Origin: Microcystis aeruginosa NIES-843
GTDB taxonomy: Bacteria > Cyanobacteriota > Cyanobacteriia > Cyanobacteriales > Microcystaceae
Direction: 5' to 3'
DNA: 32,000 nucleotides
Assembly (NCBI RefSeq): GCF_000010625.1
Contig: NC_010296.1
Span: 5,640,001 to 5,672,000, forward strand
Shown: in pieces, positions 6,469 through 28,313 of the stretch
How the letters are laid out: each line of letters starts with the position of its first letter
How positions within the stretch are numbered: the stretch's first letter is position 1
The notes under the pieces: model-generated
What the model saw: the letters and a program-made list of their open reading frames with translations, nothing else
What the model was told of the DNA's origin: nothing
Databases searched by the model: none
Program-made: the position numbers and the translations under genes

Positions 6469-6722
6469 AGTGATAGGATTGGATGGAGTCTTTATTTTAG
6501 TCCGAGGAAATTAAATCAAGTCGATGGAAAAAATGTTACCAGTGAACAGCAATCGGACAAAATAACTGCTAGATTACAAGGTATAGTCCATCACTCTCTG
6601 GTAGATATTCAAACAGCGATCGCTCTGTGAGAAAAATCTCTGGATTAGCCAACAAATAAAGATAGTTTACCTGAAAATTTCCCAACAATTCACGCCCTTA
6701 TAGACAACTTGCTCGCAGCCCC

Positions 6723-6789
6723 CCTTATTAAGGGGGGATTAAGGGGGGATCAAAACCACCTTATTAAGGGGGGATTAAGGGGGGATCAA
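6723..6789. repeat. 31-bp direct repeat x2 containing C6/G6 hairpins and GATC
   Basis: CCTTATTAAGGGGGGATTAAGGGGGGATCAA occurs at 6723-6753 and 6759-6789. Related CCCCCCTTGATAAGGGGGG and GGGGGGATC motifs occur at 6366-6405 and 4927-4939. Confidence 0.85.
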
Positions 6790-6853
6790 TTGCCCACCTC
6801 AAGGTTGGGGTGAGTGAATTAAATTCCACCCTCGTTATTATTCTTCTCTACCC

Positions 6854-8950
6854 ATGACTAACTCTTTATATATCAGCACGACGGCAACGGGAAGCGGTAA
6901 AGCGTTAGTAGCTTTAGGAATTATTGACTTAATTCTCCGCAAAACTAATAAAGTTGCTTTTTTCCAGCCAATTGTTCTCGACTGTTCCCAAGGTCATCGG
7001 GACGAAGACATTGACTTAATCCTCAATTATTTTAAATTAGAACAAACCTACGAAGAGGCCTTTGGTTTATGTTATGACGAAGTTAAGGATTTATTGGTAC
7101 AACAAAAATTTGATGAAATCATCGAAAGAATTATCAAAAAGTTTAAAAACTTAGAAAAAAAATATGATTTTATCCTCTGTGAAGGTTCCGATTACCTGCA
7201 AGAAAATTCCGCCTTTGAATTTGAACTAAATACAGAAATTGCCAAAAATCTCGGCCATCCCATCTTAATATTAGGTAATGCCCACAATCGCAGTATCGAA
7301 GATGCCCTTAGTCCGATCCTGATTTCCTGCGACACCTACCAAGATAAAGGTTGTACGGTGATTGGGATTATTATCAATCAAGCTGAAGAGGAAAAAATAG
7401 GGGAATTACGGAAAACCCTGACTAAAATTTTTCCCCCCCAAGAATATGCCCTAGGAGTGATTCCCCACAATGCCAAACTGAGCAGCCCGCGAGTGGCAGA
7501 AATCGCCCAACAATTACAGGCAAAAGTTCTCTACGGACAGCAGAGATTAGACAGTTTAGCTAGTAACTTTCTGGTGGTGGCCATGCAGATGCAAAATGCC
7601 CTAGAGCGGATAAAAGAAGATAGTTTAATTATCACTCCTTGGGATCGCGGCGATGTGATTATCGGGATGTTACAGGCCCACCAATCAGCCAATTATCCCC
7701 AATTAGCCGGTATAGTCTTAACAGCAGGTCATAACCTCAATCCTTCGATCGCCCGTTTAATTGAAGGTTTGCCCGATCCCTTACCGATTCTCTCCGTCAC
7801 CACCGATACCTACACCACGGCCGAACGCATCCACGATGTGCGGACCACCCTAACCTCGACGGACTACGATAAAATTAACCTCAGTCTGCAGCTTTTTCAC
7901 AGTAACATCAATCTCGATCGCCTAGAAGCGCAAATTCACACTTTGCGGACCCAGGGGATTACCCCGAAGATGTTCACCTATAATCTCGTACAACAGGCCA
8001 AAGCGCAAAAACGTCACATCGTTTTGGCCGAAGGGACCGAACCGCGCATCCTCCAGGCGGCCACAGTTTTAATCGAACAGGATATCGTCGATTTAACCCT
8101 TTTGGGACAACCGGACGAGATCGCAATGGTGATTAAAAAACATGGTATCACTCTCGATCTCGATCGCCTGCAAATTATTGACCCCGTGGCTAGTCCCCAT
8201 TTTGAAAGCTATGTGCAGACCCTCTACGAAGCGAGAAAAGCCAAGGGAATGAATCTCGACATGGCCCGGGATTATGCACAGGATGTCTCCTATTTTGGCA
8301 CTTTAATGGTGTATCAAGGCGATGCTGATGGTATGGTATCGGGGGCAGTGCATACCACTCAACACACGATTCGGCCTGCACTCCAGATTATCAAAACTAA
8401 GCCCGATTGTGCGATCGTCTCCTCGGTCTTTTTTATGTGTCTAGAGGATCGGGTCTTGGTCTATGGGGATTGTGCGGTCAATCCCGACCCCAGTGCCGAG
8501 GAATTAGCCGAAATCGCCCTATCTTCTGCCGAAACCGCCCAAAAATTCGGAATAGAGCCGCGAATCGCCCTGCTTTCCTATTCTTCGGGTCAATCGGGCC
8601 AGGGAGAAGACGTGGAAAAAGTACGACAAGCGACCAAAATCGCTAGGGAAAAACGCCCCGATTTGAAGCTAGAAGGGCCGATTCAGTACGATGCGGCCGT
8701 GGATAGGGAAGTAGCCGCCCAAAAAATGCCGGGGTCAGAGGTAGCGGGCCAAGCAACGGTGTTTATTTTTCCTGACCTGAATACAGGGAATAATACTTAT
8801 AAAGCCGTGCAGCGGGAAACAAAAGCTTTAGCGATTGGTCCAATCCTACAGGGATTAAAAAAACCCGTCAATGATCTCAGTCGCGGTTGTACCGTTCCCG
8901 ATATTATCAATACGGTGGTAATCACGGCAATTCAATCCCAATCTTTTTGA
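6854..8950 (+). CDS. pta: phosphate acetyltransferase, long form (AAA-like/DRTGG N-terminal region + PTA_PTB domain)
   Basis: 698 aa. The C-terminal third carries the canonical Pta blocks (VLAEGTEPRIL, MVSGAVHTTQHTIRP, DCAVNPDPSAEELAEIA, GPILQGL.KPVNDLSRG). Confidence 0.95.
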   Translation: MTNSLYISTTATGSGKALVALGIIDLILRKTNKVAFFQPIVLDCSQGHRDEDIDLILNYFKLEQTYEEAFGLCYDEVKDLLVQQKFDEIIERIIKKFKNLEKKYDFILCEGSDYLQENSAFEFELNTEIAKNLGHPILILGNAHNRSIEDALSPILISCDTYQDKGCTVIGIIINQAEEEKIGELRKTLTKIFPPQEYALGVIPHNAKLSSPRVAEIAQQLQAKVLYGQQRLDSLASNFLVVAMQMQNALERIKEDSLIITPWDRGDVIIGMLQAHQSANYPQLAGIVLTAGHNLNPSIARLIEGLPDPLPILSVTTDTYTTAERIHDVRTTLTSTDYDKINLSLQLFHSNINLDRLEAQIHTLRTQGITPKMFTYNLVQQAKAQKRHIVLAEGTEPRILQAATVLIEQDIVDLTLLGQPDEIAMVIKKHGITLDLDRLQIIDPVASPHFESYVQTLYEARKAKGMNLDMARDYAQDVSYFGTLMVYQGDADGMVSGAVHTTQHTIRPALQIIKTKPDCAIVSSVFFMCLEDRVLVYGDCAVNPDPSAEELAEIALSSAETAQKFGIEPRIALLSYSSGQSGQGEDVEKVRQATKIAREKRPDLKLEGPIQYDAAVDREVAAQKMPGSEVAGQATVFIFPDLNTGNNTYKAVQRETKALAIGPILQGLKKPVNDLSRGCTVPDIINTVVITAIQSQSF

Positions 8951-8959
8951 GTTATCAGT

Positions 8960-8994
8960 TAGAAAACGGGTTTCTTTGAGAAACCCGTTTTCTA
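8960..8994 (+). terminator. REP-like perfect palindrome immediately after pta (possible terminator hairpin, no U-tract)
   Basis: T-AGAAAACGGGTTTCT-TTG-AGAAACCCGTTTTCT-A gives a 15-16 bp stem and 3-nt loop, 10 nt after the pta stop. It belongs to the palindrome family also seen at 21153-21267, 24484-24542 and 25425-25548. Confidence 0.5.
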
Positions 8995-11837: not shown

Positions 11838-11913
11838 GTTACAGTAGAGCAGGAAGTCGCCTTCCCACCCCCTGCTTCAAAACCGGACTTACGACTTTCG
11901 CCGTATCCGGCTC
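11838..11913 (-). ncRNA. group II catalytic intron domains V-VI (Rfam Intron_gpII-type region)
   Basis: GAGCCGGAUACGGC-GAAA-GUCGU-AA-GUCCGGUUU is 34 nt with the AGC triad, a GAAA loop and a 2-nt bulge, and every stem position pairs (Watson-Crick or G-U). The D6 hairpin GGGAAG-GCGA-CUUCCU follows. Confidence 0.85.
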
Positions 11914-12622
11914 CTGAGTAACTAGGCTACTGTCATTAGTAGAATAATAATGGGAATTATTATTTCCTTGTCTATTCAACCCTCTTGGCTGTATCCCCAC
12001 CAGACAAGATTGTTGGTTTTAGGGCGTATATGACCGTTGATTGTTGCTTAGACTTCCTAGTTACCCGTCCTTTGTCAGCATATCTTTGATATTACTCAAA
12101 GCCTTGGCTTTTAAGGACATCCTCTCCCTCTATTGACTTGCGGATGGTTTCCTACTGCCCCGAACGGGCAGAGTCAATCAGGGTTACTTCGTTCCCTATA
12201 ACCATTGGTTGAACCCTTAGGATGATACTGTCCACAACAGAGTAACGGGAATGCCTTACTGATAGTGGTATGAGCTATCAGCCCCAACTCTGTTAACTTT
12301 TGTTTCGAGCCTGTCAGCCTTTTGGCTCGTGGGTGTTGACGATGGTTAATTCGTATCTTCGCCCCAGGGCTATCCATAGGTTCTGGCTCAACGGGTTTCT
12401 GATTTAGGCTATCAGATACCGCTTTTTTTTCCTCGCTCACTACCTCAGATGTACCAAGTCTAAAGCAGCAGGAAATGCCGTCACTCTAGGCATCTAGAGG
12501 ACAGGACTAAGGTTATTACTAACCCGCACCTGTAGGGTTATAAAGTTATCAAGGTACTACATTTACCAAGCGGCTAATCCTCTAAACGTCTTACTGTCTA
12601 GTTTCTAGCCAACGAATCGCAC
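11838..12622 (-). mobile_element. group II intron, ORF-less (~785 nt)
   Basis: The minus strand starts GTGCGATTCG at 12622. Canonical domain V lies at 11913..11880. Domain VI carries a GCGA tetraloop and an unpaired A 7 nt before the terminal ...TAAC (11838). Domain IV is reduced to a short AT hairpin (11941-11968). No RT/maturase ORF is present. Confidence 0.85.
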
Positions 12623-13945: not shown

Positions 13946-14962
13946 ATGGTCAAATTTATCGATTTATTTGCCGGTATTGGAGGCTTTAGAATAGCTTTTG
14001 AAAATCTGGGTTGTCAGTGTGTTTTTTCATCGGAGTGGAATAAATTTTCTCGAAAAACCTACGAAGCTAATTTTAACGATAGTCCCGAAGGGGATATTAC
14101 TTTAATTCCCGCTTTAACAATACCAGATCATGATATATTGACGGCTGGGTTTCCCTGTCAGCCTTTTAGCATAGCTGGAGTAACTAAACACAATGCGTTA
14201 GGTACTCGCCATGGATTTGATCATCCCACTCAAGGAACACTTTTTTTCGAGGTTGTCAGAATTATTCGAGAAAAAAGACCGAAAGCATTCATTTTAGAAA
14301 ATGTCAAAAATTTACAGAGTCATGACAAGGGTAAAACATTTGAAGTGATTAAAAATACCCTATCAGAGGATTTAAATTATCATATTTGTTATCAGGTCAT
14401 AGATGCTCGTTCTCTTGTTCCCCAGAACAGAAAAAGAATTTTTATTGTTGGCTTTGAGAAACCTAGCCGATTTATGTTTCCAGAAATACCAGATATTCAT
14501 CCTAAAATTAAAGATATTCTTGAAGGGGAAGTTGATAGTAAATATACTTTAACAGATCATCTCTGGGATTACTTACAGAAGTATGCTGATAAACATAAAG
14601 AAAAAGGGAATGGTTTTGGTTATGGATTAGTTAATTTAGAGGGGATTGCCAGAACTTTGAGTGCTAGATATTATAAAGATGGTTCCGAAATTTTGATCCC
14701 TCAACAGGGAAAAAATCCCCGTCGTCTAACACCAAGAGAATGTGCAAGATTGATGGGATTTCCTGAAAAATTCATTATTCCTGTATCTGATAATCAAGCT
14801 TATAAACAGTTTGGTAATGCGGTTGTACCTCCTGTAGTAGAGGCAATAGGAAGGGAGATATTGCTAAGTCTTAATAATCCTATTTTAGATCAGAAAAATT
14901 TGCTTGATTCATCTCGCAAAAATCCAATTATCAAACAATTAGAACTTGCCCTAGTTTTTTAG
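13946..14962 (+). CDS. dcm: DNA (cytosine-5)-methyltransferase, type II R-M system
   Basis: 338 aa with the ordered m5C motifs [38 protein letters not shown] and X QFGNAV. The overall layout resembles HpaII-type MTases (from memory). Confidence 0.95.
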
Positions 14963-14974
14963 TCCTAAAGATTT

Positions 14975-15817
14975 ATGATTGATATCTATAGCTTTAATGC
15001 TCAGGAAAATGAATTAATCGAGACAATTAAGACTGCTTATTATATGCAACCGGTGATCTCGAAAATAGACGCTATTTTAGCAATTCAAGATGTGGAGATA
15101 TATCAAAATGCTTTCAATTATCTCTATGAATTTATTCAAGGCTCAAAAGATGAAGTAGAAAAAATTATTAAACAAAGAAAGCTTCAGGGATTGATTAAAG
15201 ATGAAAAACAAACTGCCAAAGCTGTGGTAGGAAACATATTTCCCTATGCGGTTATCTATATTTTTCTCAAAAATAAGGAGATCAAGAATATTGATCAACA
15301 TATTTATATAACTAATAAAAAATCTGCTGTTCGAGGATTTGAAAATATATCCACTATTAAATTGGGTGATGGAGAACAACAAAAACTAGATTGTGATTTG
15401 ATCATTTATTCTTACCATACTTCTGCAAAGATAAGTGATGGTAATAATCAAGAAATACCCTATCCTAAATGTATAATTTTATCCTTAAAAACTTCTTTGC
15501 GAGAAAGAGCATCGCAAACCTATAAATGGAAACTTTTGTTAGAAATAGCTAATGATCATGGCTCTAAAATTAAGGAAAAATACGGCATTAACTATAATGT
15601 TCCAGAAATTCCTCTTATCTGTTTTGTTACAGTTAATTTTTACAACGAAATTAACAATCCTCAACAACGAGGAATGTTAAAATTTTTTGATAAAGCATTT
15701 TTGGCCAAAAAATTAGATAATGAAAAAGAGACGGATTTAAACAGACAAAAATCCCAAGATTTTATTAGTCCATTATCAGAATTAGTAGATTTTGTTAGAG
15801 ACTTTTTTAAGCCATAA
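14975..15817 (+). CDS. type II restriction endonuclease, CC:GG-recognising PD..(S)xK superfamily (Cfr10I/NgoMIV/Ecl18kI/BsaWI-like)
   Basis: 280 aa, starting 12 nt after the MTase gene on the same strand and sharing its AT-rich composition. Candidate catalytic and recognition residues are LDCDL (D139/D141), S170-L-K172-T-S-L-R176-E-R178, and E190. Confidence 0.65.
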   Translation: MIDIYSFNAQENELIETIKTAYYMQPVISKIDAILAIQDVEIYQNAFNYLYEFIQGSKDEVEKIIKQRKLQGLIKDEKQTAKAVVGNIFPYAVIYIFLKNKEIKNIDQHIYITNKKSAVRGFENISTIKLGDGEQQKLDCDLIIYSYHTSAKISDGNNQEIPYPKCIILSLKTSLRERASQTYKWKLLLEIANDHGSKIKEKYGINYNVPEIPLICFVTVNFYNEINNPQQRGMLKFFDKAFLAKKLDNEKETDLNRQKSQDFISPLSELVDFVRDFFKP

Positions 15818-15917: not shown

Positions 15918-16256
15918 CTAAGCCACAGCAAATCCCGTATATTTGCGTACTTTAGGATAACGAAAACCCAGAACTATATCTTCTTTGGGAATACCTGCTT
16001 CCATCAAATCAGTCGCTATGCCTTCCTCCGTTTCATCACATTGAATCCAGACTTTATCGACAACCAAGCTAAGGTGAATTGGTGTTGCATGGAGATACTT
16101 ATTACCACTCCAACCGAAATCTAAAACTAGATAATGTCCTCGTTCATCATCAAATATAACCTGAGAAGTGTAGCCATCAGGTAAGGTAGCACGATAGTTA
16201 GCATGATTCTGGAGAACAGTCTTAATAATACCTTGATATTTTAATCGGGTATCCAT
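15918..16256 (-). CDS. xisI: XisI-family protein (fdxN-element excision controlling factor-like)
   Basis: 112 aa with full-length XisI-family blocks (YQ..I..VL..HA, GHYLV...GW....R.H...IHL.....KVWIQ.D.TE.GIA..L...GIPKEDIVLGF). Confidence 0.9.
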   Translation of the reverse strand: MDTRLKYQGIIKTVLQNHANYRATLPDGYTSQVIFDDERGHYLVLDFGWSGNKYLHATPIHLSLVVDKVWIQCDETEEGIATDLMEAGIPKEDIVLGFRYPKVRKYTGFAVA

Positions 16257-19300: not shown

Positions 19301-20763
19301 GCATTGGCGGCATTGCTGCCGCTGCTGATAACTGCCCAGTCAACGTTATTGCTTCCCGTGGTGATAACCGAACGAGTGACGGTGAAAGTGAAAGCTTTAC
19401 TGCCACTGTTGCCCTCGGTTTGGTTGGCATTGGTGGCGGCAATGGCGAGGGTGGGAATTGCGGGCGTACTCACGGCCCACAACTCCCAACCGTTAACGCC
19501 GTTATCGGCGCGGAAGAACAGGGTGTTGCCCACTGCCGTTAGATTACGGGGGTTGGAGCCATTGGAACCGGGGCGGATGTCCCCCACCAGAATCGTGCCG
19601 GCCGCCGTGCCGTCGCTTTTCCATAATTCCTCACCGTTCACGCCGTTATCGGCAGTGAAGAACAGGGTACTGCCCACTGCCGTCATCTGGGTGGAGAAGT
19701 CAAGGGAGCCACCGGGACCGGGGCTTATATCTTTGACCAGAATTGTACCAGCTGCCGTGCCGTCGCTTTTCCATAATTCCTCACCGTTAACGCCGTCATC
19801 GGCAGTGAAAAAGAGGGTACTGCCCACTGCCGTTAGATTGCGGGGGGAGCGACTAGAGGAACTGGGGGCGATATCTTTGACCAGAACCGTACCGGCCGCC
19901 GTGCCGTCGCTCTTCCACAATTCCTCACCGTTCGCGCCGTTATCGGCAGTGAAAAAGAGGGTATTGCCCACTGCCGTTAGATTGCGGGGGTGGGAGCCAC
20001 TAAAGGAACCGGGGCGGATATCCTTGACCAGAACCGTACCGGCCGCCGTGCCGTCGCTTTTCCACAATTCAGTACCGTTCACGCCGTCAAAGGCCTGGAA
20101 GTACAGGGTATTGCCCAGCGCCGTCAGATAGCGGGGGTGGGAGCCATAGGAACCGGGGCGGACGTCTCTGACCAAAACCGTACCGGCCGCCGTGCCGTCG
20201 CTTTTCCACAATTCCCGACCGTTCACGCCGTCATTGGCAGTGAAGAACAGGGTACTGCCCACTGCTGTTAGATTGCTGGGGTAGGGTTCCAAGTAACTGT
20301 AACCGGGAAAAATATCTTTGACCAAAACCGTACCGGCCGCCGTGCCGTCGCTTTTCCATAATTCATCACCGTTCACGCCGTCATCGACAGTGAAGAACAG
20401 GGTACTGCCCACTGCCGTTAGATAGCCGGGGGGGGAGTAACTGTAACCGGGAAAAATATCTTTGACCAAAACCGTACCGGCCGCCGTGCCGTCGCTTTTC
20501 CACAATTCCGGACCGTTCACGTTGTCACCGGCAGTGAAGTACAGGGTACTGCCCACTGCCGTTAGATAGCCGGGGTAGGAGCCACTAAAGGGGCGGATAT
20601 CCTTGACCAGAACCGTACCGGCCGCCGTGCCGTCGCTTTTCCACAACTCCCGACCGTTCACGCCGTTATCGGCCCCGAAGAACAGGGTGTTGCCCACCGC
20701 CGTTAGTTCGAGGGGCAAGGAGCCATAGGGGCTTATATCCTTAACTAAAAAAGGGATTGACAT
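16324..20763 (-). CDS. large secreted repeat protein: 2 x (8 ELWxSDGT repeats + terminal ELWAVS) with 3 Calx-beta domains, RTX Ca-binding nonapeptides and a cyanobacterial C-terminal tail domain
   Basis: 1479 aa with no signal peptide. It has 16 ELW(K/R)SDGT(A/E)AGT units of ~41-44 aa and three Calx-beta-like modules (NQTEGNSGSKAFTFTVTR...PGE(T/S)SKVITV.V.GDT..E.NE.FTV.LSN). GGAGNDTLNGAAGIDTLTGGTGTD repeats are followed by DRVTDFAIGTDKIDL. Confidence 0.9.
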   Translation of the reverse strand: MSIPFLVKDISPYGSLPLELTAVGNTLFFGADNGVNGRELWKSDGTAAGTVLVKDIRPFSGSYPGYLTAVGSTLYFTAGDNVNGPELWKSDGTAAGTVLVKDIFPGYSYSPPGYLTAVGSTLFFTVDDGVNGDELWKSDGTAAGTVLVKDIFPGYSYLEPYPSNLTAVGSTLFFTANDGVNGRELWKSDGTAAGTVLVRDVRPGSYGSHPRYLTALGNTLYFQAFDGVNGTELWKSDGTAAGTVLVKDIRPGSFSGSHPRNLTAVGNTLFFTADNGANGEELWKSDGTAAGTVLVKDIAPSSSSRSPRNLTAVGSTLFFTADDGVNGEELWKSDGTAAGTILVKDISPGPGGSLDFSTQMTAVGSTLFFTADNGVNGEELWKSDGTAAGTILVGDIRPGSNGSNPRNLTAVGNTLFFRADNGVNGWELWAVSTPAIPTLAIAATNANQTEGNSGSKAFTFTVTRSVITTGSNNVDWAVISSGSNAANATDFVGGVLPSGTVSFAPGETSKVITVNVLGDTTFEPNENFTVILSNPTNGANITTATATGTIENDDVAIPILTIAATSSSQTEGNSGSKAFTFTVTRADNTTGSNNVNWAVTGTGTFPANAADFVGGVLPSGVVSFAPGESSKVITVNVQGDTTVEPNENFTVTLSNPTNGATLGTPSTATVTIVDEDSVPFLVKDIYPGSFGPYPSNLTARGNTLFFTAYDSVNGEELWRSDGTAAGTVRVADISPGDYGSYPSNLTVVGSTLFFQAYDSVNGIELWKSDGTAAGTVLVKDINPGDSSSYFYNLTALGNTLFFTVDIGRTEELWKSDGTAAGTVLVKNIGPEPSNLTAVGNTLFFSARGVSGRELWKSDGTAAGTVLVKNIRPGSSSSDPRYLTAVGNTLFFNANDGVNGLELWKSDGTAAGTVLVKDINPGSYGVPPRYLTAVGNTLFFSANDNVNGEELWKSDGTAAGTVLVKDIRPGSFSSSNPRNLTAVGNTLFFTAGDNVNGRELWKSDGTEAGTVLVKNINPGSGFSGNYPQNLTAVGNTLFFTADDGVNGRELWKSDGTAAGTILVGDIRPGSSGSNPQNLRVVGSTLYFTADDGVNGRELWAVSSPAVPTLAIAATSANQTEGNSGSKAFTFTVTRAVNTTGTNNVNWAVTGSGTNPANATDFVGSVLPSGTLSFAAGETSKVITVDVQGDTTVELNENFTVTLSNATNGATITTATATGTINNDDFIGTSGPDTLAGTSGADAMTGLAGNDTYTVNDAGDLVIEAFNQGTDTVQAAISYTLPNNVENLLLTGTGNLNGTGNGLNNQITGNSGNNSLNGAAGTDTLIGGAGNDTLNGAAGIDTLTGGTGTDIFIFRFGQSTAAALDRVTDFAIGTDKIDLLSQAGAAINAPLAFTRATDSTTTNINTIVTNVFTDANGATAGNQALGINSAALVRDNSSSTYLIINDGTAGFQSANDLVINLTGLTGTFPALGTIAVNSFFV

Positions 20764-20958
20764 GATTTTTTCCTGAATAAAGGGTGAAAATTAAACAGTT
20801 AAGTAGTGGTGCAGAATAAATTTCCTAGTGAAGAAAGGCAAGAGGCAAGGGGGGGTTAGATTTGTGTCATTAATTTTGCTTAGGTACTTAAGCCGGCAAA
20901 GAAGGGTATATCTGGCTGAAAAACCCCAGATGTCTGCAACTCCGACAAATCTAAGGTT

Positions 20959-21069
20959 TCAACAAAGGTTTGATTCTCTCCCTTTCTCGCCAGAAAACTC
21001 ACCTCTAACTCCCAACTTCCTCGTAATATCGTCAATAGTAGGAAAAATCGACAAAAGAGCAGAAGTCAT
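20959..21069 (-). pseudogene. 5' remnant of a DUF4347-type large-protein gene
   Basis: The minus-strand ORF MTSALLSIFPTIDDITRKLG...* (36 aa) starts like ORF 24100..24402 (MTSTLLPGFPAVDD). The ~70 nt upstream (21070-21135) are ~85% identical by eye to 24403-24470. Confidence 0.5.
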
Positions 21070-21152
21070 GACGCTGACCTAGAAAGATTACTGCGGCTAT
21101 TTTATGCAAAGAATCCCGAATTTGTCAAGCTCTAGCAGAAATTAATATTGCA

Positions 21153-21267
21153 AGAAAACGGGTTTCTCAAAGACAAGAAAACGGGCTTCTAAATAGTTTC
21201 TTGAAGAAACCCGTTTTCTAGATATGCGTTTGCAGAAAACGGGTTTCTCAAAGAAACCCGTTTTCTA
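21153..21267. repeat. cluster of REP-like palindrome half-sites (AGAAAACGGGTTTCT / AGAAACCCGTTTTCT)
   Basis: Half-sites lie at 21153-67, 21176-90 (one mismatch), 21205-19, 21234-48 and 21252-66. The last pair forms a perfect 15-bp palindrome with a 3-nt loop. Confidence 0.85.
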
Positions 21268-21993
21268 GATATTGATTTTAGCCAAAGACTGCTTAAATTC
21301 TGCGAGAGAATTAGCAGTAGCTGCTAATTTAACAATCTCTTGTAATGTAGATAGTACCGAAACTTTATTCAGGTATTGTTCCACATCTAAAGGAACTTCA
21401 CCTAAGCGAGCTTGCAAAACTGTTTTGACAAAATCACGAGCATTTTCTAACGCTCCAATTTCCTTACCCTGTTCGATTCCTCGTAACTCCATATTACTTA
21501 CTAAAGGCATGGTTCTTTCCTTCTCAAATTGTTTGATTTTACTCTCTAAGCTTGACTGTAATTCAGGGGATAAAGTCATCATATTGTCGATGATTTCAAA
21601 CAGTTTAATTATCTGTTCTCTCTCGAACTCCTTTTCATATAATCCCCTGATTAACTTCCACTTCCACTGTTCCCGTTGTGGCAGCTTCCCGGTAGTCGCT
21701 TTTGTTTTCAGGTGTGCCATGACGATTATAGCAAAGGGATTGCTACTTGCTTCCAATTAGTCACTGATAACTGATAACTGGTAACTGATAACTGAATAGA
21801 GTTTGTCAGCGAAACGTTTTTTTGTCTTAGCTGAAGCGGTAATCCGTTTGAGTTCTTTTTCCAGAGATTCGGGAATTTTTGTCCAATCAATTAATTGGTA
21901 AACTTCAGGAAAGAAGAAATGTAAAAACGCTTCAAAATACTCGGTTAATGCTTCTTTCCAGGGTTCATCATAATTGGCGGTTGTTGGGTTCAT
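21265..21993 (-). pseudogene. Rpn/YhgA-like PD-(D/E)XK family gene, copy A, with the nuclease core deleted
   Basis: N-terminal 66 codons (21796-21993) and C-terminal ~160 codons (21265-~21750) match copies B and C. Codons ~67-163, including IHIEIQSQ, are replaced by CTGATAA heptamers. The last ~55 codons are highly diverged at nucleotide level. Confidence 0.8.
21764..21798. repeat. CTGATAA heptamer tandem repeat (5 units) filling the deletion in Rpn copy A
   Basis: Direct reading gives CTGATAA CTGATAA CTGGTAA CTGATAA CTGAATA. Confidence 0.85.
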
Positions 21994-22014
21994 TGGAGAA
22001 GAAAATTCCTGAGA

Positions 22015-22977
22015 CTATTGTTCTAAAAGTTGATGCAACTCATCAAAAGAATTAACGGTTAATGCCGATTTCAGTAACTCGTCTAAAATCGATAATACAG
22101 AAATTTTATCAACAGCTTGCTCAATTTCTATTGGAATGTCACCCAATCGCGTTTTCAGCACCGTTTTAATATAGTTACGAGCCTTTTCTAACGCTCCAAT
22201 TTCCTTACCAATTTCCTTACCGCGTTCTATCCCTCGTAACTCCATATTACTCATTAAAGGCATGGTTCTTTCCTCCTCAAATTGTTTGATTTTACTCTCT
22301 AAACTTGACTGTAATTCAGGGGATAAAGTCATCATATTGTCGATGATTTCAAACAGTTTAATTATCTGTTCTCTCTCGAACTCCTTTTCATATAATCCCC
22401 TGATTAACCTCCACTTCCACTGTTCCCGTTGTGGCAGCTTCCCAGTAGTCGCTTTTGTTTTCAGGTGTGCCATGACTATTATAGCAAAGGGATTACTACT
22501 TGCCTCTAGTTCTGACCAGTTTTCCTCATAGTCCAGTAATTTGACTGTTGGGAATTTGAGGCTGACTTCACAGCCAGCGATAGTATAATTATAGGAATCT
22601 GGTCGCCAATTTACTCGTTCATCTCCTAATATAGCGAGACTGATAACTGGTTTCTGATACAAATCAAAGGCCCGATAGTTATAAATATACATCCTCTGAG
22701 GGAAATTTTCTTCGTATTGACTTTGAATTTCAATATGAATCAAAATCCAGACTTCTTCACCCCTGAGTAACCAAACTTTATAGAGTTTGTCAGCGAAACG
22801 TTTTTTTGTCTTTGCTGAAGCGGTAATCCGTTTGAGTTCTTTTTCCAGGGATTCGGGAATTTTTGTCCAATCAATTAATTGGTGAACTTCAGGAAAGAAG
22901 AAATGTAAAAACGCTTCAAAATACTCGCTTAATGCTTCTTTCCAGGGTTCATCATAATTAGCGGTTGTTGGGTTCAT
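22015..22977 (-). CDS. Rpn-family recombination-promoting nuclease/putative transposase (PD-(D/E)XK N-domain + DUF4351-like C-domain), copy B
   Basis: 320 aa. DKLYKVWLL..EEVWILIHIEIQSQ is the YhgA/Rpn-type D...E.Q motif. The C-terminal end (RLGDIPIEIEQAVDKISVLSILDELL) resembles DUF4351. Confidence 0.8.
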   Translation of the reverse strand: MNPTTANYDEPWKEALSEYFEAFLHFFFPEVHQLIDWTKIPESLEKELKRITASAKTKKRFADKLYKVWLLRGEEVWILIHIEIQSQYEENFPQRMYIYNYRAFDLYQKPVISLAILGDERVNWRPDSYNYTIAGCEVSLKFPTVKLLDYEENWSELEASSNPFAIIVMAHLKTKATTGKLPQREQWKWRLIRGLYEKEFEREQIIKLFEIIDNMMTLSPELQSSLESKIKQFEEERTMPLMSNMELRGIERGKEIGKEIGALEKARNYIKTVLKTRLGDIPIEIEQAVDKISVLSILDELLKSALTVNSFDELHQLLEQ

Positions 22978-22998
22978 TGGAGAAGAAAATTCCTGAGA

Positions 22999-24045
22999 CT
23001 ATTGTTCTAAAAGTTGATGCAACTCATCAAAAGAATTAACGGTTAATGCCGATTTCAGTAACTCGTCTAAAATCGATAATACAGAAATTTTATCAACAGC
23101 TTGCTCAATTTCTATTGGAATATCACCCAATCGCGTTTTCAGCACCGTTTTAACATAGTTACGAGCATTTTCTAACGCTCCAATTTCCTTACCAATTTCC
23201 TTACCAATTTCCTTGCCTATTTCTTTACCGCGTTCTATCCCTCGTAACTCCCCAATTTCCTTGCCAATTTCCTTACCGATTTCCTTACCGCGTTCTATTC
23301 CTCGTAACTCCATATTACTCATTAAAGGCATGGTTCTTTCCTCCTCAAATTGTTTGATTTTACTCTCTAAGCTTGACTGCAATTCAGGGGATAAAGTCAT
23401 CATATTGTCGATGATTTCAAACAGTTTAATTATCTGTTCTCTCTCGAACTCCTTTTCATATAATCCCCTGATTAACTTCCACTTCCACTGTTCCCGTTGT
23501 GGCAGCTTCCCGGTAGTCGCTTTTGTTTTCAGGTGTGCCATGACGATTATAGCAAAGGGATTGCTACTTGCTTCTAGTTCTGACCAGCTTTCCTCATAGT
23601 CCAGTAATTTGACTGTTGGGAATTTCAGACTCACTTCACAACCAGCGATAGTATAATTATAGGAATCTGGTCGCCAATTTACTCTTTCATCTCCTAAAAT
23701 TGCGAGACTGATAACTGGTTTCTGATACAAATCAAAGGCCCGATAGTTATAAATATACATCCTCTGAGGGAAATTTTCTTCGTACTGGCTTTGAATTTCA
23801 ATATGAATCAAAATCCAGACTTCTTCACCCCTGAGTAACCAGACTTTATAGAGTTTGTCAGCGAAACGTTTTTTTGTCTTTGCTGAAGCGGTAATCCGTT
23901 TGAGTTCTTTTTCTAGGGATTCGGGAATTTTTGTCCAATCAATCAATTGGTGAACTTCGGGAAAAAAGAAGTATAAAAACGCTTCAAAATACTCGCTTAA
24001 TGCTTCTTTCCAGGGTTCATCATAATTGGCGGTTGTTTGGTTCAT
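22999..24045 (-). CDS. Rpn-family recombination-promoting nuclease/putative transposase, copy C (expanded GKEI repeat)
   Basis: 348 aa, near-identical to copy B except for 28 extra residues in the (GKEI)n/ELRGIERG repeat region. It is separated from copy B by the same 21-nt spacer seen at the other copy junctions. Confidence 0.8.
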   Translation of the reverse strand: MNQTTANYDEPWKEALSEYFEAFLYFFFPEVHQLIDWTKIPESLEKELKRITASAKTKKRFADKLYKVWLLRGEEVWILIHIEIQSQYEENFPQRMYIYNYRAFDLYQKPVISLAILGDERVNWRPDSYNYTIAGCEVSLKFPTVKLLDYEESWSELEASSNPFAIIVMAHLKTKATTGKLPQREQWKWKLIRGLYEKEFEREQIIKLFEIIDNMMTLSPELQSSLESKIKQFEEERTMPLMSNMELRGIERGKEIGKEIGKEIGELRGIERGKEIGKEIGKEIGKEIGALENARNYVKTVLKTRLGDIPIEIEQAVDKISVLSILDELLKSALTVNSFDELHQLLEQ

Positions 24046-24099
24046 TGGAGTTGTTTGCTTACTCGTAGGCTGTGAAGCGCGATAGCGTAACGCACCGAT

Positions 24100-24402
24100 T
24101 TAATAATAGAGGTGAATGGTGGTAATCTGGGGATTTTGTGGTAAAAAAGCGGATATTTGTTCGATTCCGTCTTGATTGGGAGAGAGAATAACGGTGGCGA
24201 CTTCTGGAATTACCCCAGCTTGTAGGGTTTGATAATCGGTAACACCAGCATCGAGGAAGACTACAGTATTTAATTCGGGTGCGGTTAAACGCTGATTTCT
24301 CACACTATCCACCCGATTAGCTTGACTCAAGCCATCAGATTGAGCAAAATTGAACAAAACATCGTCAACAGCAGGAAAGCCAGGCAAGAGGGTAGAAGTC
24401 AT
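24100..24402 (-). pseudogene. truncated N-terminal DUF4347 domain of a large secreted protein gene
   Basis: 100-aa ORF containing VVFLDAGVTDYQTLQAGV....VILSPNQDGIEQISAFL......TTIHL, which matches the DUF4347 N-domain and stops where family members continue (I.SHG). The breakpoint lies ~55 nt from the start of Rpn copy C. Confidence 0.6.
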
Positions 24403-24483
24403 GACGTTAACTGCAAAAGATTAATGCGACTATTTTATGCAAACAATCGCCAATTTTTCAAGGGGGATATAACATAAATTTAC

Positions 24484-24542
24484 AGAAAACGGGTTTCTAA
24501 ATAGGCGTTTTCTCATGGTTTCTTGAAAAAACCCGTTTTCTC
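24484..24542. repeat. REP-like palindrome (imperfect, long loop)
   Basis: AGAAAACGGGTTTCT-AAATAG...TTTCTTGAAAAAACCCGTTTTCTC parallels the central part of the 21176-21219 cluster. Confidence 0.75.
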
Positions 24543-24606
24543 AGTTTCGTGGGTTGTTGCAAGATATGCAATCTGAACGACGTTCATAAATTGTATTTTT
24601 ATTAGT

Positions 24607-25014
24607 TTATGGGACACAAACAATTCCTAATCCTGCCATTTGACGAATATGATCATCAAAAGCGAATACCTTAAATATTTGTAAACGATGAGCCATAACT
24701 AAAATAGAACAATCTGTGTAACTCCATTTTTTATCATTGTACTTACAGAAAGCTTCCCATATTGCCAGATCATCGCTATCTGACACATTGATATAACGAT
24801 GATCTTCTCTTAGTATTTGACCCACTTGGATTGAGGCTCGACTAGATACCTTGCTCCGAATCCAAGTCACAGTTTCATCGAATACCGATTCGAGAATAAT
24901 CCAATTATTATGAGGATTTTCTAAGTAATATTTTTGAGCGCTTTCGTGATGAGTTTCAGATTTGACAAAAAAGGCAATTAAAGCAGACGTATCAACAATA
25001 ATTTCTTTGTCCAC
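24607..25014 (-). CDS. vapC: PIN-domain ribonuclease toxin (VapC-like)
   Basis: 135 aa. It begins IIVDTSALIAFF (first acidic residue), followed by conserved acidic positions in ESVFDET, YTDCS and FAFDDH. It lies 5 nt downstream of a small antitoxin-like ORF. Confidence 0.8.
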   Translation of the reverse strand: MDKEIIVDTSALIAFFVKSETHHESAQKYYLENPHNNWIILESVFDETVTWIRSKVSSRASIQVGQILREDHRYINVSDSDDLAIWEAFCKYNDKKWSYTDCSILVMAHRLQIFKVFAFDDHIRQMAGLGIVCVP

Positions 25015-25019
25015 AATTT

Positions 25020-25280
25020 TTAATAAATAATTTCATCGATGTTTTCAGCGTAGTTAGTTACAACTTGACCCCGATTATCTTGTCCGATAATATATTTAGG
25101 CTCAGGTTGGACAATTTCTAAACTTCCACAAAGTTCCCAAGTACGAGTCTTAGTAATATCTGGTAATTCAGCTTGAACATAATTTTCCAAAGCTTTGATA
25201 ACAATCTCTTGAACCGAGGATTTTTGTTCTTGCAAACGAGATATTAATTCGTCGGGAATTTCGATCAATATTTGAGTCAT
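25020..25280 (-). CDS. antitoxin partner of the PIN toxin
   Basis: 86-aa ORF immediately upstream of the PIN gene on the same strand. The N-terminal part (ILIEIPDELISRLQEQ..SVQEIVIKALENYV) looks like a small DNA-binding antitoxin fold. Assignment rests on gene context. Confidence 0.65.
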   Translation of the reverse strand: MTQILIEIPDELISRLQEQKSSVQEIVIKALENYVQAELPDITKTRTWELCGSLEIVQPEPKYIIGQDNRGQVVTNYAENIDEIIY

Positions 25281-25424
25281 TGATAAACCTTAGAGATTAA
25301 CGTTGTTTTACTAACATTATAGCCTGTTTGTGAATTATAACCAAGAGACGCAAATGCAATTACCTGAATCAGTTACCAAAAGGCTAACAACTGTTCACTG
25401 ATTCAGGTGATTCGCCATAAGTCC

Positions 25425-25548
25425 AGAAAACGGGTTTCTGAAGATTGTCTCTCAATTACTCCCTCACAATGACAATTTTAGCGGGTCATGGCGAGAAGGC
25501 GATGGCCACAAGTCCAGAAAACGGGTTTCTTTAAGAAACCCGTTTTCT
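25425..25548. repeat. REP-like elements: one half-site (25425-39) and one perfect palindrome (25516-48), each preceded by GCCA(T/C)AAGTCC
   Basis: Direct reading. The palindrome AGAAAACGGGTTTCT-TTA-AGAAACCCGTTTTCT abuts the truncation point of Rpn fragment D. Confidence 0.85.
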
Positions 25549-25550
25549 AG

Positions 25551-25646
25551 GTGAACTTCGGGAAAGAAAAAGTATAAAAACGCTTCAAAATATTCGCTTA
25601 ATGCTTCTTTCTAGGGTTCATCATAATTGGCGGTTGTTGGGTTAAT
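25551..25646 (-). pseudogene. Rpn-family gene fragment D (first 32 codons only, start and Trp12 mutated)
   Basis: It aligns to codons 1-32 of copies B and C. ATG has become ATT (25644-46) and TGG has become TAG (25611-13). It is cut off at 25551 by the REP palindrome. The usual 21-nt spacer separates it from the stop of copy E. Confidence 0.8.
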
Positions 25647-25667
25647 TGGAGAAGAAAATTACTGAGA

Positions 25668-26869
25668 CTATTGTTCTAAAAGTTGATGCAACTCATCAAA
25701 AGAATTAACGGTTAATGCCGATTTCAGTAACTCGTCTAAAATCGATAATACAGAAATTTGATCAACAGCTTGCTCAATTCCTATTGGAATATCACCCAAT
25801 CGCGTTTTCAGCACCGTTTTAACATAGTTACGAGCATTTTCTAACGCTCCGATTTCCTTGCCGCGTTCTATACCTCGTAACTCCCCAATTTCCTTACCAA
25901 TTTCCTTACCGATTTCCTTACCGCGTTCTATTCCTCGTAACTCCATATTACTCATTAAAGGCATGGTTCTTTCCTCCTCAAATTGTTTGATTTTACTCTC
26001 TAAGCTTGACTGCAATTCAGGGGATAAAGTCATCATATTGTCGATGATTTCAAACAGTTTAATTATCTGTTCTCTCTCGAACTCCTTTTCATATAATCCC
26101 CTGATTAACTTCCACTTCCACTGTTCCCGTTGTGGCAGCTTCCCAGTAGTCGCTTTTGTTTTCAGGTGTGCCATGACTATTATAGCAAAGGGATTGCTAC
26201 TTGCTTCTAGTTCTGACCAGTTTTCCTCATAGTCCAGTAATTTGACTGTTGGGAATTTCAGACTCACTTCACAACCAGCGATAGTATAATTATAGGAATC
26301 TGGTCGCCAATTTACTCTTTCATCTCCTAATATAGCGAGACTGATAACTGGTTTCTGATACAAATCAAAGGCCCGATAGTTATAAATATACATCCTCTGA
26401 GGGAAATTTTCTTCGTACTGGCTTTGAATTTCAATATGAATCAAAATCCAGACTTCTTCACGGGAGCATCTCACCTTTGCAATGAGCATAAATACTTAGT
26501 GGAAAAATAGGCTTTTCGAGGGTAATTCTTGTTTTAATTCTCCATGTACGCAGTCTTTAAAAGCCTCTATTTCGTTCCAAGACACGATTAAGAGTGGCTT
26601 TTAGGCTAAGTATAATTACTTATCGCGTAAGTGAGATGCTCCCCTTCTTCACCCCTGAGTAACCAGACTTTATAGAGTTTGTCAGCGAAACGTTTTTTTG
26701 TCTTTGCTGAAGCGGTAATCCGTTTGAGTTCTTTTTCTAGGGATTCGGGAATTTTTGTCCAATCAATCAATTGGTGAACTTCGGGAAAAAAGAAGTATAA
26801 AAACGCTTCAAAATACTCGCTTAATGCTTCTTTCCAGGGTTCATCATAATTGGCAGTTGGTTGTTTCAT
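25668..26869 (-). pseudogene. Rpn-family gene copy E, disrupted by a MITE insertion
   Basis: ORFs 26606..26869 (N-terminal) and 25668..26489 (C-terminal) are the two halves. Removing 26462-26643 plus one TSD copy restores an in-frame 336-codon gene collinear with copies B and C. Confidence 0.9.
26462..26643. mobile_element. MITE copy 2 (182 bp), inserted in Rpn copy E
   Basis: It has the same TIRs as copy 1 and the 9-bp TSD CTTCTTCAC (26453-61 and 26644-52). Paralogues B and C carry a single CTTCTTCAC at the homologous position, i.e. empty sites. Confidence 0.9.
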
Positions 26870-27021: not shown

Positions 27022-27092
27022 GCCGTCGGATAGCCGGGGAAGGAACCAGATAAACCAGGGAAGATATCTTTAACCAAAAAAGGAGTTGACAT
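27022..27092 (-). pseudogene. 5' remnant of an ELWxxDGT-repeat protein gene
   Basis: The minus strand reads ATG..MSTPFLVKDIFPGLSGSFPGYPTA, compared with MSIPFLVKDISPYGSLPLELTA at 20763. The ~40 nt upstream (27093-27130) nearly match 20764-20802. Homology ends at ~27022. Confidence 0.7.
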
Positions 27093-27119
27093 GATTTTTT
27101 CCTGAATAAAGAGTAAAAA

Positions 27120-28313
27120 TTAAACAATTAAAGAAGGCACCATCCAGACGGATTGAGTGCCGTCGAGGTCGGTATCCGGTCCAATTAGCGCCGGGTTGCG
27201 GTAGCCCGGGAGGACGGAGACGGCGAAAACCTCCTCCACGCCGCTATTGAACCAAAAAGTGGCCCCCAGTTGACTGGTGGCCAGGTTGACAATAGCCAAC
27301 CCGCACCGCAATTGATTACGCCGCTCATCCAGGGGTAAACCGCCAAAAACCGCCGTTTCCCGCACTTGGGACAACCCGACAAAGGCGTGACCTTCCCAAC
27401 AGTCCAAACCCCGGGTAAAACCGGGCAATTCGGCGATGATTTCCGTGCTACCAGTTTGGGGATGCCAACGGTTCAAGGTTCCATAACCGGAATTGAGGAA
27501 ATAGAGATTACCCTGGTAAAGGCGGGGAGAATGGGGCATAGCTAAACCCCGCAGAATCACCTCTCCTCTAGCCACATCAATCAAGCATCCGCCCTGGGCC
27601 TTATTCTCTCGCCAGAGGCTTTCCTGGTTGGTTTCCCCCAATGCCGTTACATAGGCGGGAGTGCCGCTATTTTCAGCCATAGCCAAGCCATTGAGGTGGC
27701 AGCGGTCTCCGGGGACTAACTCGGTAATAAAAGGCGGTTTCCACTGGGGGAGAAAACTCCAATTTCCTTCGATGGTTGCCAGACAGTTAAATAGGGTATT
27801 GACCACCCAAAGGCGATTACTGCCAAAGGCCAAATCATGACCCATAATCGGGCCGGTGAGGTGAGAGGAGCGGGCCAAAAAGGCGATATCCTGTTCCCCT
27901 TCGGGTTTAATCTGGGGGGCAATCTCTCGATTAGCGGGTAAATTCCAAATTGCCTGACGAGCGCCCACAGCAATTCCGGTAGCAGTTCGGGTTAAACCCA
28001 TTGCTTGGTCAAAATGGGCGAAACTCACCCGCATTTGTCCTTGATAAGTGCCAATGCTGGCCACTCGTCCCGCTTGGTAGGTGGAAATCAACACCGACAA
28101 GTCAAACTGGTTGAGTAATTCCGGCAGATTGAGGCTGTACTCATAATTTACCGGCACTGCTTGGCGCTGAGATGGACTCGCTGCTGGCTCCTGAGTATCT
28201 GAAAACTGGTTAGTCTTGGGCGGCAAGCTGTCCATAGAGTTTCTTTGGTATAGATTAGAATCAATTTTAATAATTGATTTTTGTTTATGGTTTATTATGG
28301 TTTCAGTTGGCAT
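27120..28313 (-). CDS. TIGR03032-family protein (conserved, function unknown); start uncertain (28313 or 28235)
   Basis: 397 aa containing blocks I associate with TIGR03032/DUF4915: LISTYQAGR, RLWVVNT..NCL, GDRCHLNGLAM, GGCLIDV, MPHSPR...G.LY.LNSG.G. Confidence 0.75.
   Translation of the reverse strand: MPTETIINHKQKSIIKIDSNLYQRNSMDSLPPKTNQFSDTQEPAASPSQRQAVPVNYEYSLNLPELLNQFDLSVLISTYQAGRVASIGTYQGQMRVSFAHFDQAMGLTRTATGIAVGARQAIWNLPANREIAPQIKPEGEQDIAFLARSSHLTGPIMGHDLAFGSNRLWVVNTLFNCLATIEGNWSFLPQWKPPFITELVPGDRCHLNGLAMAENSGTPAYVTALGETNQESLWRENKAQGGCLIDVARGEVILRGLAMPHSPRLYQGNLYFLNSGYGTLNRWHPQTGSTEIIAELPGFTRGLDCWEGHAFVGLSQVRETAVFGGLPLDERRNQLRCGLAIVNLATSQLGATFWFNSGVEEVFAVSVLPGYRNPALIGPDTDLDGTQSVWMVPSLIV

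Follow-up and report, generated by a model that had tools for sequence, protein, structure and literature searches.

A stretch of 32,000 nucleotides (nt) from the genome of Microcystis aeruginosa NIES-843 (NC_010296.1, 5,640,001-5,672,000; hereafter the window, in whose positions all coordinates are given) carries five head-to-tail copies of an Rpn-like gene, A to E, all of which lie on the minus strand. The region is probably (with a rough probability of 0.7) a tandem array of Rpn-family toxin-antitoxin (TA) genes of the RpnL/RpnS type. Genes of the rpn family encode a long nuclease toxin together with a short C-terminal antitoxin that is made from an internal start (Zhong et al., 2023, PMC10400941). 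In the Microcystis array, the long product of a full-length gene would be a DNA endonuclease toxin of the PD-(D/E)XK type, and an internal ribosome-binding site with the ATG at codon 239 would give a short product of ~82 aa that binds and silences its own long product. The pairing of short and long products would be set by a run of GKEI tetrads in the first long helix along with one of four old tail cassettes. Within the window, copies B and C would act as genes for both long and short products, copy E would give the short product only since the insertion of a miniature inverted-repeat transposable element (MITE), copy D would be dead, and copy A would be antitoxin-only. The array would change by unequal crossing-over between units, slippage of the 12-nt repeats, and tail exchange just 3′ of the repeat tract, and hence the same chromosomal site would differ between strains.

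An earlier note made from this DNA (the original prediction) had taken the copies as Rpn/YhgA-like PD-(D/E)XK paralogues with a DUF4351-type tail, and the catalytic residues, transitive homology, and domain architecture all agree with it. On these three grounds, and not on the thresholds of hidden Markov models (HMMs), the predicted proteins can be placed securely in the Rpn/YhgA family, as a cyanobacterial branch that has diverged, is putatively of PD-(D/E)XK type, and has a DUF4351-type tail. The best protein matches (85-98% identical) are from M. aeruginosa, M. flos-aquae, and M. panniformis and are mostly annotated as hypothetical; a few are named as Rpn family, RpnC/YadD family, or YhgA-like transposase. 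An exhaustive search returned 5889 representative clusters at E <= 0.001, from which 74 diverse homologues, 35-57% identical to copy B, were taken into a family alignment. PF04754 is matched by 21 of the 74 (E <= 0.01) and DUF4351 by 19, with a best value of 1e-19. Homologues on cyanobacterial plasmids, which are 45-58% identical over the full length, are labeled by RefSeq as DUF4351 or Rpn family. Similarly, the DUF4351 (PF14261)/Transposase_31 (PF04754) proteins of filamentous cyanobacteria share the same domain order at 45-58% full-length identity, and some members of the family alignment have a canonical DUF4351 tail, whereas the Microcystis tails have diverged below the Pfam cut-off (tail type T1) or past detection (T2).

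The columns invariant among the 74 homologues are D9, D63, Q85, R95, and K146, and H81 and E83 are kept in more than 90%. A profile alignment to RpnA of E. coli pairs D63 with D63, E83 with E82, Q85 with Q84, and R95 with R94, and an N-terminal hD..(F/W)K motif, matched by eye, sets D9 opposite D11 of RpnA. Mutation of RpnA D11, D63, E82, Q84, or R94 abolishes the RpnA phenotypes (Kingston et al., 2017, PMC5350276). The AlphaFold model of copy B (predicted local distance difference test score, pLDDT, of 94) places strands at 64-70, 75-83, and 111-117 and a helix at 92-107 around this motif.

The second line of evidence is the conserved internal start. The sequence GAGGAGGA stands 7-8 nt upstream of the ATG at codon 239 (M239), and this ATG lies at 22263-22261 in copy B, 23331-23329 in C, 25964-25962 in E, and 21510-21508 in A. 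Homologues from many genera retain the signal down to a protein identity of 50%, 17 of 18 in all; GAGGAGGA is followed by ATG in 16 of the 18 and by a GTG start in one more, and one has GAAGAGGA. The two glutamate codons that form the GAGGAGG signal are GAG 34 times and GAA once, against 109 GAG and 409 GAA elsewhere in the same genes (n = 518). The GKEI tetrads begin 14 residues past M239. Their number ranges from 0 to 8 among 55 Microcystis copies, some of which have a 60-nt higher-order duplication, and distant homologues show GIEQ, GLEQ, GLQQ, or GREE at the same position. Within the window, copy A has one tetrad, copy B two (22196-22221), copy C three plus four with the 60-nt duplication (23180-23311), and copy E three plus one, also with a 60-nt higher-order repeat. 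The combination of repeat tract and tail differs between all copies in 11 of 12 arrays, the sole exception being a full gene with its cognate fragment behind it. In the structural models the tetrads lie in one long helix (244-278 in the full model, 6-40 in the short one), which is followed by three short helices.

These features are those of the E. coli systems, in which the tetrad tract begins 8-20 residues past the internal methionine inside a long helix, the number of repeats varies by strain, and a mismatch in number abolishes neutralization (Zhong et al., 2023, PMC10400941). The short protein also occurs there as a separate downstream gene (ypaA), at times annotated as DUF4351; rpn arrays are built by tandem direct duplication, and fusions between N-termini and antitoxins have been described as well (Zhong et al., 2023, PMC10400941). 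RpnA-E of E. coli and the plasmid-borne RpnP2 (PMC5350276, PMC10400941) have in common with the Microcystis genes five critical residues in an N-terminal domain, which is predicted to be of PD-(D/E)XK type in Microcystis, a C-terminal helical domain that varies, a ribosome-binding site and methionine inside the gene just upstream of copy-variable tetrads (one hydrophobic residue with charged residues or glycine), tandem arrays formed by direct duplication, and antitoxin-only derivatives beside full genes. As far as sequence can tell, all of the RpnL/RpnS hallmarks appear to be present in the array, and the framework of Kingston et al. (2017) and Zhong et al. (2023), which the original prediction had invoked, fits unusually well with its conserved internal start, tetrads, and antitoxin-only derivatives. 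The layout differs in that the predicted Microcystis short product has ~82 aa and a DUF4351-type four-helix tail, as against 47-60 aa in E. coli. The striking features were all described for Rpn systems in 2023, so that the kind of system is not new; what is new is the cyanobacterial branch below the HMM thresholds.

Several results weigh against this reading. The curated cut-offs (21 bits for PF04754, 52.1 for TIGR01784, and 25 for DUF4351, PF14261) are reached by no protein of the window. Copy B scores 17.7 bits with PF04754 and 20.4 bits with TIGR01784, its tail matches DUF4351 at 19.8 bits (E 8e-4, colinear over 3-59 of 59), and DUF4351 gave no match to the tail of copy A (T2). The original prediction had named the lack of a significant match to YhgA/Rpn or DUF4351 models as a finding that would count against it, and the sub-threshold matches leave this point borderline. 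Only the catalytic core resembles RpnA in sequence (28% identity over 72 columns), and hhalign gave the family profile against RpnA alone a probability of 3%, though the catalytic core was aligned correctly. Sequence searches of the PDB that started from copy B alone, from the profile of the 74 homologues, or from one of the short region found no meaningful match and no 7TH0, and there was no full-length Rpn among the PDB search results. Likewise, Foldseek comparison of both AlphaFold models with the PDB gave nothing at E < 0.1; its non-significant top matches include the nucleases Cap4, EcoO109I, NucS/EndoMS, and Kpn2I. The model of the short product had no Foldseek or HMM match to RpnA_S (7TH0), short helical proteins being hard to match. 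The binomial P of ~3e-22 for the bias in glutamate codons is overstated, as the genes are related and the calculation ignores their shared ancestry, and weak Shine-Dalgarno signals are common in cyanobacteria. PADLOC matched nothing among the Rpn or VapBC proteins of the window and recognized only a methylase. Finally, the cyanobacterial members are known from sequence alone, and their toxicity, neutralization by the short product, and anti-phage role are proposed by analogy with the E. coli work.

The five copies are 93-99% identical outside their tails and lie at the positions that the original prediction gave. Copies B (22015-22977, 320 aa) and C (22999-24045, 348 aa) are intact and both have tail T1, whereas copy A has lost its core and copy D (25551-25646) is a stub of 32 codons, all as claimed before. 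Copy D has lost its start (ATG to ATT) and carries a stop at codon 12 (W12, TGG to TAG), and its end coincides exactly with a palindromic hairpin element. The junction TAG + TCTCAG(G/T)AATTTTCTTCTCCA + AT(G/T) was seen three times (21991-22017, 22975-23001, and 25644-25670) where none is expected by chance. The same 21-nt spacer is therefore present between B and A (21994-22014), C and B (22978-22998), and E and D (25647-25667), as was claimed, but only one of its positions varies, where two had been given. That the array grew through duplication of one unit, whose junction is fixed, is thus borne out. The junction also occurs in eight other loci, which makes the founding duplication old and attributes the later changes to unequal exchange. 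As a minor point, at 21991-22017 and 22975-23001 the TAG, the 7-codon spacer, and the ATG keep the neighboring copies in one frame; read-through of the stop codon would fuse adjacent copies, and there is no sign of fusion. Open reading frames (ORFs) of 124-162 aa also run antisense on the plus strand (21272-21760, 23213-23599, and 25858-26232, with PISLPISLP... opposite the GKEI tract). They are of low complexity, recur merely through the repetition of the DNA, and are probably not genes.

Copy A was described in the original prediction as a copy with its core deleted, and the deletion is not private to it. Residues 69-156 of the full protein are missing from it, and at least 13 further copies, spread over 12 loci and at least 8 genomes, lack the core in the same way and share the right-hand junction; two of these copies lie within one array, and some lie at two different loci of one chromosome. 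This A-form consists of the N-terminal 66-68 codons (or, in a second variant, 37), a (TCAGTTA)n tract, a fixed GTGACTAATTGG, and the gene from codon 157 on. In the window these parts are an N-terminal remnant of codons 1-66 (21796-21993), the heptamer tract followed by an in-frame TAA (21763-21795), and a C-terminal ORF of 163 codons (21265-21756) with one GKEI and tail T2. The heptamer tract, which has 2-7 units in other loci, derives from the native core sequence TATCAGAAACCAGTTATCAGT. A role of this tract as a phase-variation switch that fuses the N- and C-terminal parts was considered and rejected, because GTGACTAATTGG gives in every A-form a TAA in the frame of the C-terminal part and a TGA in a second frame, and no number of repeats fuses the two.

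The A-form has its C-terminal half left intact, internal start and complete short-product region included, and copy A is thus taken as a putative antitoxin-only derivative of some age. A second recurrent antitoxin-only form is an ORF of 131-144 aa that opens, with VVWVIPTLL, at the stop codon of the gene before it and ends the arrays at three loci (L001, L002, and L029); in L029 it equals the upstream gene exactly in both repeat tract and tail. These forms resemble the stand-alone antitoxin genes rpnE-ypaA (rpnE_Ss) and rpnC_Ss of E. coli in that they are partial duplicates directly downstream of a full gene, and both forms retain the internal start with all of the short-product region. Unlike those, the Microcystis derivatives keep much more of the upstream coding sequence (copy A also the 66 N-terminal codons), the A-form has spread to many loci, and most derivatives match no full gene of their own array in repeat number and tail.

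Copy E was said to be split by a MITE, and the element is a true one, but its extent is 26462-26643 (182 bp), which goes beyond the gap of ~26490-26605 between the two ORFs of E. Its terminal inverted repeats of 13 bp (GGGAGCATCTCAC) are perfect, and 9 bp of the target are duplicated (CTTCTTCAC). The element occurs again at 828-1009 in inverted orientation, with 100% identity and a 9-bp duplication of its own (GAGTGAACA), and a copy of 97% identity is present at locus L008. The orthologous gene at locus L003 has the empty site, where the overlap of the alignment equals the 9 bp. Terminal inverted repeats, target duplication, further copies, and an empty site are thus all on record for this MITE, which appears to be currently active. 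The 5′ part of copy E (26644-26869, codons 1-75, including the target duplication at 26644-26652) and the 3′ part (25668-26461, tail T1) become an uninterrupted ORF of 336 aa when the MITE and one duplication are removed (26644-26869 + 25668-26452). There is no other lesion, and hence copy E was a good gene until very recently. The 3′ part lacks D9 and D63 and keeps the internal start and the antitoxin-like region, and copy E as it stands is predicted to be nuclease-dead.

The substitutions between copies speak to whether the array is decaying. Over codons 1-238, copies B and C differ by 22 synonymous and 4 non-synonymous changes (ratio of non-synonymous to synonymous polymorphism, pN/pS, 0.04), B and E by 19 and 5 (0.06), and C and E by 5 and 3 (0.14). 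Across loci the nuclease part has a synonymous divergence (dS) of 0.12-0.24 and a ratio of 0.04-0.16. Such low values imply that the full-length copies are maintained by selection. The word "decaying" used in the original prediction accordingly does not suit B, C, and E, whose differences are mostly synonymous and of which E is intact without its MITE, but it does suit D and, since the MITE insertion, E; these two are the only truly decayed copies. A related view, that the array is a non-functional relic of duplicated pseudogenes drifting to loss, is quite improbable. It would account for the damage in three of the five copies (A, D, and E) and for the almost complete loss of the upstream array at locus L010, and the non-synonymous to synonymous ratio (dN/dS) within tail types is underpowered to oppose it: for the antitoxin-only ORFs the divergence per tail type is too low (dS 0.03-0.10) to reveal constraint. 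It is at odds with the ratios just given for B, C, and E and across loci, with the fully open frames of B and C, with the single lesion of E, a MITE whose sister copy is 100% identical, and with the conservation of the internal start signal across genera.

The tails have a different history from the nuclease bodies. Four tail types (T1-T4) were compared, and they are separated by a dS of 0.8-1.5 at a ratio of 0.26-0.42, and each type is found on full, A-form, and fragment copies. Full-length copies maintained by selection and tails so much older than the bodies together imply a mosaic in which a homogenized nuclease body is joined to ancient, exchangeable tail cassettes. For example, copy A is 97-98% identical to B, C, and E until ~20 nt past the repeat tract and 67-70% identical (at the nucleotide level) beyond it. 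It is conceivable, if doubtful, that the array serves as a specificity library, in which the tails and antitoxin-only forms are silent donors recombined into the nuclease body at the tetrad tract. Tails with a dS of ~1 on bodies with a dS of ~0.2 would then yield new long/short pairings continually, in the manner of cassette switching in antigenic variation. The sharing of tails across copy forms and the break in identity of copy A are compatible with such a library, yet neither shows that the exchange is selected or programmed.

The comparison of strains bears on the TA-array reading and on the history of the site. Four other genomes yielded the same site, with a DUF4915 gene and the giant RTX gene as its limits, and its content differs in each; copy number thus varies between strains, a point that the original prediction had proposed to check. 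Locus L003 has the layout of the window (a full copy and a fragment, a VapBC-DUF4347 fragment segment, then a full copy and an A-form) with no MITE, one fewer distal full copy, and a different proximal array. Locus L010, in a complete chromosome, has only a 120-nt tail remnant, the VapBC-DUF4347 fragment segment, and a full copy with a fragment. The remaining two are without VapBC: L001 has two full copies and a fragment, and L009, also in a complete chromosome, has an A-form, a full copy, a fragment, and a full copy.

The VapBC segment in the window consists of an 86-aa ORF in the antitoxin position (25020-25280, minus strand; putative VapB), a VapC-like PIN-domain toxin gene (24607-25014, minus strand; PF01850, E 1.2e-12), and a promoter-like element with the first 100 codons of a DUF4347 giant-protein gene (24100-24462, minus strand; DUF4347 fragment 24100-24402, Pfam E 3.5e-12). 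The PIN gene is clear, but the 86-aa ORF matched no family, and the pairing as VapBC is thus putative. The 86-aa ORF is 100% identical in L003. The junction from DUF4347 fragment to Rpn gene recurs in at least eight other loci. The original prediction held that the array was later interrupted by the DUF4347 fragment and VapBC; this is one possible order of events, but the arrangement is shared with other strains and loci and, judged from this sharing, was inherited; it did not arise by a recent interruption in this strain alone.

The exact 348-aa protein of copy C is also encoded on an independent metagenome contig, where a PIN gene and a DUF4347 fragment come before it and the same 21-nt junction after it. 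This contig also speaks against an artefact of assembly, in which a single copy was mis-expanded. Short-read assemblers struggle with repeats of ~1 kb that are 93-99% identical, and this gene is where many draft contigs stop; such an origin is nevertheless scarcely credible, as the copies are told apart by their substitutions, repeat numbers, and lesions, both junctions flank the exact C protein on the metagenome contig, and comparable arrays exist in the complete chromosomes CP191408.1 and CP169647.1.

The wide dispersal of the family raises the alternative that the units are an insertion sequence with a YhgA-like transposase and that copy A is its non-autonomous deletion derivative. At least six loci occur in one genome (M. 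ichthyoblabe FBCC-A1114), draft contigs often break inside the gene, the A-form sits at many loci as non-autonomous elements do, and the family bears the historical label 'transposase_31'. Against this stand the fixed 21-nt spacer, the lack of inverted ends or target duplications of the units, and the presence of at least three upstream contexts (a 24%-identical DUF4351 paralogue, a DUF4347 fragment, and a giant-gene stub); the inverted repeats near single copies are only generic hairpin palindromes, on one or both sides. An insertion sequence was also rejected for the Rpn family by Zhong et al. (2023, PMC10400941), according to whom no autonomous PD-(D/E)XK transposase is known. Hence this explanation is very unlikely. 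The dispersed segments usually carry 5′ pieces of giant genes, which suggests that they spread by segmental duplication or by recombination between paralogous giant genes.

The giant genes themselves are associated with the array. The start of a 1479-aa Calx-beta/RTX gene (minus strand) was placed at 20763, and a duplicate of its 5′ end with promoter and the first ~24 codons lies at 27022-27131 (minus strand), the matching segments being 20735-20802 and 27064-27131 (FLVKDI-type RTX/Calx-beta). A second DUF4347-type promoter and start, with a stub of 36 codons, lies at 20959-21129 (minus strand), and 21025-21129 duplicates 24358-24462 (DUF4347-type). The RTX/Calx-beta duplicates bracket the whole array region in five of the five strains compared, and in most Microcystis loci a DUF4347-type 5′ element comes after the Rpn array, often with a giant gene behind it. 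A scan for sigma-70-type promoters found no enrichment (21 found as against 16 ± 4 expected), the only strong sites being the two DUF4347-type promoters.

This association favors the view that the Rpn-like proteins are mainly recombination-promoting nucleases for genome plasticity, for example in the rearrangement of giant surface-protein genes, and not TA or anti-phage systems. The arrays here and at most loci are flanked at both ends by 5′ fragments of giant DUF4347/RTX genes, duplicated giant-gene starts bracket the whole region, and RpnA increases RecA-independent recombination (Kingston et al., 2017, PMC5350276). But a conserved internal start and copy-specific tetrad numbers are what a TA specificity code predicts and are needless for a plain recombinase, and the association with giant genes could be mere segmental duplication. 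A main role in plasticity is therefore unlikely, and the RpnL/RpnS-type TA array remains the preferred reading.

To our knowledge, Rpn systems have so far been studied only in E. coli and in one Clostridioides gene. The predicted array would be evidence that the internal-antitoxin design extends to cyanobacteria. A diverged cyanobacterial branch carries the defining signals and yet escapes the standard HMM cut-offs, and hence many such genes are still labeled as hypothetical or transposase. The locus is also a natural test set for the rule of repeat-number specificity, as its two predicted toxins can be set against four putative antitoxins of differing repeat number and tail. The fast turnover of a putative defence locus in a bloom-former, through gain and loss of copies, MITE insertion, and tail swapping, bears on the dynamics between Microcystis and cyanophages. 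Searches of phage and viral contigs for relatives, such as a phage-borne antitoxin mimic, found none.

The defence-island context that the original prediction proposed is suggestive at best. A restriction-modification (R-M) pair, formed by a C5 methylase (13946-14962) and a BsaWI-like endonuclease (14975-15817), and the PIN gene are indeed nearby, but a distance of 5.4 kb, which includes a giant RTX-type gene, separates the R-M pair from the array, and PADLOC was silent on the Rpn and VapBC proteins. An XisI gene (15918-16256, minus strand) stands with the giant gene between the R-M pair and the array. About half of the Microcystis loci have in addition a distant Rpn paralogue 54-108 nt upstream of the array (L029 at 6668-7693; L004, L007, L008, L011-L013, L018, and L042). 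This paralogue is 24% identical, 342 aa long, matches DUF4351 at E 1e-21 and PF04754 at 21.6 bits, has a long (QGIE)n tract, and is absent from the window.

Palindromes of the form AGAAAACGGGTTTCT-N3-AGAAACCCGTTTTCT are scattered through the region, with 12 half-sites where none is expected (8961-8993, 21152-21268, 24483-24543, and 25424-25550), mostly at the 3′ ends of genes. The cluster at 21152-21268 forms the hairpins at the 3′ end of the array, further hairpins lie at 24483-24543, and the elements at 25424-25550 are the left edge of the segment common to L003 and L010. Palindromes are present at three breakpoints, namely the end of copy D, the remnant in L010, and the N-terminal parts at L055 and L058, from which we infer that they are hot spots of rearrangement. 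The element could be a terminator, a repetitive extragenic palindromic (REP)-like element, or a small mobile palindrome. At 5004-6125 (plus strand) there is a gene for a DDE_Tnp_1 (IS4-like) transposase, and the transposase, the XisI gene, and the MITEs point to a highly plastic region. A 686-nt contig of Nocardioides allogilvus (L022, contig055) encodes a fragment 93% identical to the Microcystis protein and is most likely contamination of the actinobacterial assembly. Elsewhere in the window, a group II intron match (Rfam RF00029; 55 bits, E 2e-8, model positions 1-77 of 77) lies at 11838-11915 on the minus strand.

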